Shown here piece by piece: positions 1 to 357 of a stretch of 357 bases of DNA. A program made the position numbers and the translations under genes. The notes beneath the pieces were generated by a model that saw only the letters and a program-made list of their open reading frames with translations, was not told where the DNA came from and made no database searches. Each line of letters begins with the position of its first letter. Within the stretch, counting starts at the first letter, position 1. Source of the stretch: Escherichia coli (GTDB taxonomy: Bacteria; Pseudomonadota; Gammaproteobacteria; Enterobacterales; Enterobacteriaceae); the NCBI RefSeq assembly GCF_003334255.1, contig NZ_QOWU01000254.1. One strand, 5' to 3'.

Positions 1-240
1 GAACCCCAGAAAGCGGGGATCGCGTCATTCTGTCCGTACAACATTGGTCCCGGTAAGTGTTTCCCGTCGACGTTTTATAAACGAATTAATGCAGGCGATC
101 GCAGGGGGGCGTGTGAGGCGATTCGCTGGTGGATTAAGGACGGTGGCAGAGACTGCCGTATTCGCTCAAACAACTGTTACGGTCAGGTATCCCGTCGCGA
201 CCAGGAGAGTGCGCTGGCGTGCTGGGGAATTGACAGATAA
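1..240 (+). CDS. rrrD: Phage/prophage endolysin (T4-type lysozyme, glycoside hydrolase family 24), 5'-truncated by the window edge; only the C-terminal 79 codons plus stop are present
   Basis: Seen in sequence: frame 1 is open from base 1 to TAA at 238..240 and translates to EPQKAGIASFCPYNIGPGKCFPSTFYKRINAGDRRGACEAIRWWIKDGGRDCRIRSNNCYGQVSRRDQESALACWGIDR*. GC is about 55% here versus about 44% downstream. Established knowledge (recalled, not searched): this closely resembles the C-terminus of the RrrD/RrrQ-type lysozymes of lambdoid prophages in E. coli and relatives, and the stretch TFYKRINAGDRRGACEAIRWW aligns with the conserved C-terminal region of T4 lysozyme. The gene symbol is family-level only; the exact paralogue or host phage cannot be determined from this fragment. 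The catalytic Glu/Asp/Thr residues and any signal or SAR segment would lie upstream of the window. The ORF track omitted this frame because it contains no ATG/GTG/TTG in-window. Confidence 0.85.
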   Translation, partial: EPQKAGIASFCPYNIGPGKCFPSTFYKRINAGDRRGACEAIRWWIKDGGRDCRIRSNNCYGQVSRRDQESALACWGIDR

Positions 241-357
241 GCAGAATATTTTGCTGAAAAATGCGGTTTGCTCACACGGGCGGATAACACGAAATCCTGC
301 GAACTGACAAAAACTAAGTGAATAAAAGTAAAAACCCCGTTTGTTGGCTGCAAGCGG

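Follow-up and report, generated by a model that had tools for sequence, protein, structure and literature searches.

The window analysed here, a stretch of 357 nucleotides of Escherichia coli prophage DNA, holds the 3' part of an endolysin gene and the non-coding DNA that follows it (Table 1). Frame 1 of the plus strand is open for 79 codons from base 1, and its product, EPQKAGIASFCPYNIGPGKCFPSTFYKRINAGDRRGACEAIRWWIKDGGRDCRIRSNNCYGQVSRRDQESALACWGIDR, constitutes residues 99-177 of a 177-residue GH24 endolysin of the RrrQ / Stx-phage R type; the remaining 117 bases are intergenic. The full gene occupies positions 3707-4240 of the surrounding locus (L001) and encodes a 177-residue 'lysozyme' in E. 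coli STEC17-183. That the reading frame represents the C-terminal lobe of an endolysin, as the original prediction had it, is right: PF00959 matches residues 33-167 of the full protein (Pfam, E 3.7e-24), and PHROG 7, 'endolysin', matches it with an E-value of 2e-62. Prophage DNA annotated 'lysozyme' in several E. coli genomes is 100% identical to the window, some copies carry the RefSeq name rrrQ, and the R gene of phage H-19B is 95% identical to the window, its protein being 96% identical with the same eight cysteines. An RNA or other non-coding role for the window was rejected, as an Rfam scan of it gave no matches at E<=1. Other open reading frames (frame +2, 44-307; minus strand, 75-173 and 183-353) overlap the gene out of frame and were judged spurious. 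The one in frame +2, with 87 codons overlapping the endolysin frame, is not a real gene; its translation is confined to frameshifted chimeras in the databases, P0226 among them, which contaminate homologue lists. A hairpin of 14 pairs followed by a T-rich tail (AAAACCCCGTTTGTT GGCTG CAAGCGGGGTTTT GTGTTTCTG; dG -21.6 kcal/mol, z -2.9) has its 5' arm and loop at window positions 331-357 and its remainder ending at L001 4363, 6 bases beyond the window. Situated 90 bases 3' of the endolysin stop codon and split by the window end, it looks like an intrinsic terminator.

Table 1. Features of the window, with positions counted from its first base and residues numbered as in the full-length endolysin.
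Feature	Position	Strand	Evidence
3' part of endolysin gene R, C-terminal helical lobe of a GH24 / T4-lysozyme-fold muramidase	1..237	+	Translation, PF00959, PHROG 7, AF2 model, solved GH24 matches
Cys109 codon TGT, predicted partner Cys118	31..33	+	Co-occurrence and same-branch change
Cys118 codon TGT, predicted partner Cys109	58..60	+	Co-occurrence and same-branch change
Cys136 codon TGT, predicted partner Cys172	112..114	+	Co-occurrence and same-branch change; Cys aligned in R21 and P1 Lyz
Conserved loop D149-CRIRSNNC-YG159 with predicted C150-C157 closure, linking the final two helices of the C-terminal bundle	151..183	+	Conservation, DSSP
Cys150 codon TGC, predicted partner Cys157	154..156	+	Co-occurrence and same-branch change
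Cys157 codon TGT, predicted partner Cys150	175..177	+	Co-occurrence and same-branch change
Cys172 codon TGC, predicted partner Cys136	220..222	+	Co-occurrence with 136; paired substitutions
TAA stop codon of R	238..240	+	Translation

DNA of this kind is widespread. Matches to the window occur in 3,987 of 5,426 complete E. coli genomes, covering at least 80% of its length in 2,065 of them, and in 333 phage records at >=80% identity, mainly Stx-converting phages, whose lysis of the host leads to the release of Shiga toxin (PMC8136144). In the lysis region of the present prophage, a 71-residue 'class II holin family protein', also matched by PHROG holin families, is encoded about 0.8 kb upstream of the endolysin, while the genes for an Rz spanin and terminase lie downstream. 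In phage H-19B, the annotation of the S protein notes similarity to phage 21 S, and a pinholin partner, an S21 class II holin, is a feature present in the lysis region. The gap between the holin and endolysin genes (L001 2878-3595) holds a truncated DUF1327 pseudogene and a hypothetical gene on the minus strand, and these break up the lysis cassette of the present prophage. Two tiny predicted membrane proteins of 60 and 43 residues (phrog_1115 and phrog_4906) are encoded between the endolysin and Rz, at L001 4397-4725; the R-Rz spacing in phage H-19B is only ~300 bases.

The part of the protein encoded upstream of the window contains the GH24 motif Glu-x8-Asp/Cys-x5-Thr in the form of a catalytic triad, E35-x8-D44-x5-T50, whose numbering is the same in R21 and in the DLP12 endolysin (PMC8228626, Table 3). 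Every one of the 69 homologues of the curated set described below has E35 and D44, and T50 is kept in 90% or more of them. The alignment of these 69 sequences served to build an AF2 model (pLDDT 93.8, pTM 0.88) that has the T4-lysozyme fold and was matched by Foldseek, at a probability of 1.00, to 9kbq, 7m5i, 3hde, 4zpu, 2anv, 1xjt and T4 lysozyme entries. Its TM-score is 0.75 over 169 columns against the full-length active form of R21 (3hde) and 0.77 against the DLP12 endolysin (4zpu), with a poorer fit (0.54) to the inactive, N-terminally truncated form of R21 (3hdf). At the N-terminus, MNAKIKYGLSAAVLALIAAGASAPEIL, a basic head precedes a stretch of 18 residues without charge, in which Ala, Gly and Ser are abundant; residues 7-24, YGLSAAVLALIAAGASAP, include no charged or strongly polar residues and have a best 15-residue hydropathy of 2.05. 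A SAR-type segment, weakly hydrophobic, rich in Gly, Ala and Ser and located directly before the catalytic Glu, is therefore a feature of this endolysin, and according to Pinto et al. the endolysin families of Stx phages are predicted to be of the SAR class, their N-terminal domain resembling that of R21 and their partners being pinholins (PMC8136144; PMC10462455). The family to which it belongs leads us to expect that the catalytic domain folds in the periplasm, and since we appear to be dealing with an R21-like SAR endolysin near an S21-type holin, this domain would face an oxidising compartment. An A-G-A/S motif in the N-terminus could be a signal-peptidase site, which would mean a cleaved signal peptide instead of a SAR tether, but the domain would be periplasmic in both cases.

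All six cysteine codons that had been predicted for the window are found in frame 1 (Table 1), within the contexts FCPYN, GKCF, GACEA, RDCRIR, NNCYG and LACWG. The full protein has eight, at residues 52, 74, 109, 118, 136, 150, 157 and 172, of which C52 and C74 are encoded upstream of the window. A lack of conservation across close homologues had been named as grounds for refutation, and it is not what is seen: all eight, and hence the six of the window, are kept in 114 of 120 homologue clusters at 75-98% identity. In each of the six exceptions only one or two of the cysteines are missing, owing to a gap in the alignment or to a single substitution.

More telling is what happens in distant relatives, about 170 in all, at 32-63% identity to the endolysin. 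The curated set consists of 69 full-length sequences down to 32% identity, the fragments and chimeras of the first match list having been removed beforehand; as homologues were chosen by their similarity to the query, conservation values are biased upward. In these proteins the cysteines come and go only as pairs, namely 109 with 118, 136 with 172 (171 in distant relatives), 150 with 157, and 52 with 74. Across the 69 sequences, both members of pair 109/118 are present in 35, neither in 33 and one only in 1; the corresponding counts are 59, 9 and 1 for 136/(171 or 172), 62, 7 and 0 for 150/157, and 66, 3 and 0 for 52/74. Because co-occurrence tables such as these, and the Fisher p-values drawn from them, ignore shared ancestry, changes were also placed by Fitch parsimony on a simple NJ tree from which the cysteine columns had been masked. 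Both members of 109/118 changed together, on a single branch, in 8 of 8-9 cases, those of 136/(171 or 172) in 3 of 3-4, those of 150/157 in 4 of 4 and those of 52/74 in the single case (1 of 1), while the five cross-pair combinations gave 0-1 same-branch changes. An independent second set, found with a profile of the distant sequences, tells the same story, with complete pairs only in 104 of 105 proteins. The sequences that break the pairing rule are P0253 (A136 with C171, and an extra cysteine at 101), P0256 (C109 without C118) and P0319 (without C157).

Loss of one pair does not depend on loss of another, and five sequences (P0189, P0201, P0240, P0204 and P0250) that are without 109/118 all have cysteines at 92 and 119, around the same turn; for both reasons each pair can be regarded as an autonomous module. 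The 92/119 combination reads as an alternative co-varying pair that may correspond to C91/C118 of P1 Lyz. A subtler variation concerns the partner of C136 (window 217-222), which is residue 172 (LACWG) in the enterobacterial clade with eight cysteines and residue 171 (ELCL) in R21, P1 Lyz and most distant relatives, a register shift between clades that needs a local adjustment of the helix.

What replaces a missing pair is also informative. Where 109/118 is absent, A, V, S, T, E, I or G at 109 is found with F, W, Y, L or V at 118, and where 136/171-172 is absent, A, G, I, Y or S at 136 is accompanied by F, W or M at 171/172. Judging from the alignment, such replacements offset volume, small against aromatic, in the pattern that is expected of two side chains in direct contact. 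An hhalign profile alignment to T4 lysozyme places C109 at V103, C118 at V111 and C136 at A130, all three of which are buried in the core of the C-terminal lobe. For A130 of T4 lysozyme, the aromatic partner would presumably be F153, although this is only a lead, as the helix concerned lies beyond the reach of the profile alignment. In the model, C136 and C172 are on helices 132-141 and 159-171. As for the other two pairs of the window, bonding is sterically trivial because 150 and 157 are six residues apart and 109 and 118 eight.

Comparison with GH24 enzymes of known structure helps to place these pairs. The best full-length structural matches, at TM 0.75-0.77, are R21 (PDB 3HDE/3HDF) and its near-twin RrrD, the DLP12 endolysin (4ZPU), which share with the endolysin the T4-lysozyme fold, the E35/D44/T50 triad, a cysteine-free SAR N-terminus, an S21-type holin in the lysis region and cysteines aligned to C52, C74, C136 and C171. 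They are nevertheless only 27-28% identical to it, have V...F in place of C109/C118, lack both the DCRIRSNNC loop and C150/C157, and carry their C-terminal cysteine one residue earlier than C172. P1 Lyz (1XJT/1XJU), another exported GH24 SAR endolysin, has 18% identity to the endolysin in a structural alignment; it too has C-terminal-lobe cysteines aligned to C136 and C171, along with a further pair in that lobe, C91 and C118 in its own numbering. Since R21, RrrD and P1 Lyz all carry cysteines aligned to 136 and 171, a bridge at this position would predate the RrrQ subfamily. P1 Lyz differs in that its sequence contains seven cysteines, among them C13 in the SAR domain and Cys51, neither of which has a counterpart in the endolysin. 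The switch of P1 Lyz reportedly uses N-terminal cysteines, C13 and the catalytic Cys51 that stands in for Asp together making up the switch. At the position of loop 149-159, R21, RrrD and P1 Lyz all have a shorter connection.

The closest solved sequence is that of LysF1 from the E. coli O157:H7 phage FAHEc1 (PDB 7M5I; E 8e-22, 37-38% identity), whose last two helices are joined by a loop of equal length, reported to be a beta-hairpin turn (PMC8228626). Unlike the endolysin, LysF1 is a cytoplasmic, canonical enzyme without a SAR domain (PMC8228626); it has none of the paired cysteines, with K and L at 150 and 157. LysF1, P22 lysozyme and T4 lysozyme have been classed as cytoplasmic or as being without an N-terminal SAR helix (PMC8228626), and likewise AcLys, which has a single cysteine (PMC6024848). 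None of these four has the cysteine pairs of the endolysin, a statement that for LysF1 alone was checked by alignment. T4 lysozyme shares the fold at 13-16% identity, but is cytoplasmic and, as the original prediction pointed out, has only two cysteines in its wild-type form, C54 and C97, which are unpaired, so that it contains no natural disulfide. Engineered disulfides, as in the Matthews-laboratory variants, raise the stability of T4 lysozyme, and PDB titles document variants of this sort.

We consider it probable that the six cysteines of the window form three local, structural disulfides that stabilise an exported, R21-like SAR endolysin, and that they are not a redox switch. The analysis establishes the cysteines, their conservation and pairwise turnover, the fold and the gene context, while export, oxidation by DsbA, the S-S bonds themselves and their stabilising role are inferred. 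In the sequence of events that we envisage, Sec would export the endolysin and its weakly hydrophobic N-terminal SAR segment would hold the enzyme at the membrane, such that the catalytic domain would fold in the oxidising periplasm and would be oxidised there, presumably by DsbA. A C109-C118 bond would span the helix-turn-helix around a conserved YNxG motif, a C136-C172 bond would anchor the C-terminal helix on the core helix before it, and a C150-C157 bond would close the conserved loop DCRIRSNNC; a fourth bond, C52-C74, would lie upstream of the window. Being local and non-overlapping, the bonds would covalently stabilise and rigidify a small helical lobe, each Cys-Cys bond taking the place of the small-plus-aromatic core contacts of cytoplasmic relatives. 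Regulation would proceed through release from the membrane, as in R21. A full-text literature search returned no redox or biochemical data for this endolysin and nothing on C-terminal disulfides of R21, RrrD, P1 Lyz or RrrQ.

Several other explanations deserve consideration. Given the short window and the somewhat raised cysteine content of the local prophage genes, one might suspect a compositional excess without any paired function. Six cysteines in 79 residues amount to 7.6%, however, and the binomial probability of six or more is 3e-4 at a background of 1.16%, an E. coli-like figure, and still 3e-3 when set against the 1.8% cysteine content of ten neighbouring prophage genes. Beyond the count, the cysteines are invariant in close relatives, among which free substitution of single cysteines is not seen, and turn over pairwise in distant ones; chance is accordingly the least credible of the readings discussed here, and we give it next to no weight. 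A metal-binding (zinc) cluster is very improbable as well. Six to eight cysteines in a small domain could ligate a metal, and the CX6C and CX8C spacings are like those of zinc knuckles, but a site with three or four ligands would not tolerate the independent loss of pairs, which is what is observed: 34 of the 69 homologues are without a complete 109/118, 27 of these having 150/157, and P0207, P0216, P0218, P0222 and P0266 are without the whole of 136/171 yet have 150/157 (P0253 is without C136 only). There is, moreover, no co-variation of His or Asp, neither Pfam nor NCBIfam found a metal-binding domain in the endolysin, and the predicted location of the domain is the periplasm, a compartment in which paired cysteines are normally oxidised.

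In favour of a regulatory thiol-disulfide switch, the endolysin has its fold and export class in common with P1 Lyz, and two cysteines of P1 Lyz align to 136 and 171. Such a switch could take the form of SAR-domain cysteine isomerisation, as in P1 Lyz, or of active-site disulfide caging, as in Lyz103, in which a free SAR-domain thiol is said to open a disulfide cage around the active site. Residues 1-51 of the endolysin are, however, devoid of cysteine, position 44 is an invariant Asp and not a catalytic Cys, and the eight cysteines resolve into four co-varying pairs, leaving no free thiol from which an exchange could start. The three pairs of the window lie in the C-terminal lobe, far in sequence from E35, D44 and T50, and the SAR segment is cysteine-free in 66 of 69 homologues. 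Caging of the Lyz103 type was rejected on the same grounds, there being no SAR cysteine and an even number of cysteines in four co-varying pairs, and we regard a switch of either kind as quite improbable. The few distant homologues that do have a cysteine in the N-terminal segment, P0232, P0256 and P0264 (at query positions 21-27, with an odd total of seven in P0264), also count in its favour, and these three are themselves candidates for regulation like that of P1 Lyz or Lyz103. The original prediction had left two options for the density of cysteines, stabilising disulfides and thiol-based regulation; co-variation as three pairs bears out the former, while the latter finds no support in a protein with a cysteine-free SAR segment, Asp44 and no unpaired cysteine. 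The alternative that we take most seriously, though we still think it unlikely, is that the disulfides, and above all C150-C157 with its loop, are needed for activity, as a compartment lock through oxidation by DsbA, as a peptidoglycan-binding loop at the rim of the C-terminal lobe, or as both. Across 54 homologues of <65% identity (a similarity-chosen sample, and thus biased upward), only the catalytic block 42-52, YRDGAGIWTIC, surpasses block 149-159 in conservation among 11-residue stretches, and the loop is found near-verbatim in homologues of only 35-40% identity. It is located between the last two helices, at a point in the C-terminal bundle where, according to Love et al. (PMC8228626), the family has a beta-hairpin whose size varies. 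In the model, DSSP assigns short strands at 144-145 and 148-149, followed by the turn bounded by the two cysteines. In T4 lysozyme the corresponding stretch presumably runs as far as T142, at the lip of the cleft that holds the active site. Against a requirement for activity stand the seven of 69 homologues without 150/157, five of which are also without the surrounding loop (P0239 and P0268 keep a loop, without the cysteines), and R21, RrrD and P1 Lyz, all active enzymes that lack the pair and the loop; the equal-length loop of LysF1 likewise makes do without cysteines.

Alongside the preferred reading of local structural disulfides, the loop is conserved strongly enough for a role other than stability to be conceivable. 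One could imagine the loop and C150-C157 as a disulfide-stapled functional element, either a lip that contacts peptidoglycan or an oxidation-dependent check of competence, that defines a large, uncharacterised subfamily of SAR endolysins, although we would not count this as likely. Were it true, activity in the stapled-loop subfamily would need DsbA-dependent oxidative folding, which would add a further safety lock to that of the SAR tether.

The main value of the finding is practical. The endolysin type is very common and already recognised in E. coli prophages, and it is also that of most Stx phages, where lysis frees Shiga toxin. Its probable need for four disulfides implies that, to make it recombinantly as an enzybiotic, one would have to use an oxidising compartment or strain, and that the dsbA status of the host could influence both lysis and toxin release. 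The natural cysteine pairs mark places where the T4-lysozyme fold accepts stabilising cross-links, which may be of use in stability engineering. The conceptual gain is small: disulfides are expected in exported proteins, the paired cysteines are what would be expected of an exported enzyme's adaptation, and R21 and P1 Lyz have one of the bridges in common with it. The evidence speaks against a novel redox switch. Only three homologues are entirely free of cysteine, and two of these retain hydrophobic N-terminal segments. The third, P0239, is without an N-terminal hydrophobic segment and has a C-terminal extension that ends in a transmembrane-like stretch, LVAIAALALIGALAFLAF, which would be another way to tether the same catalytic domain.
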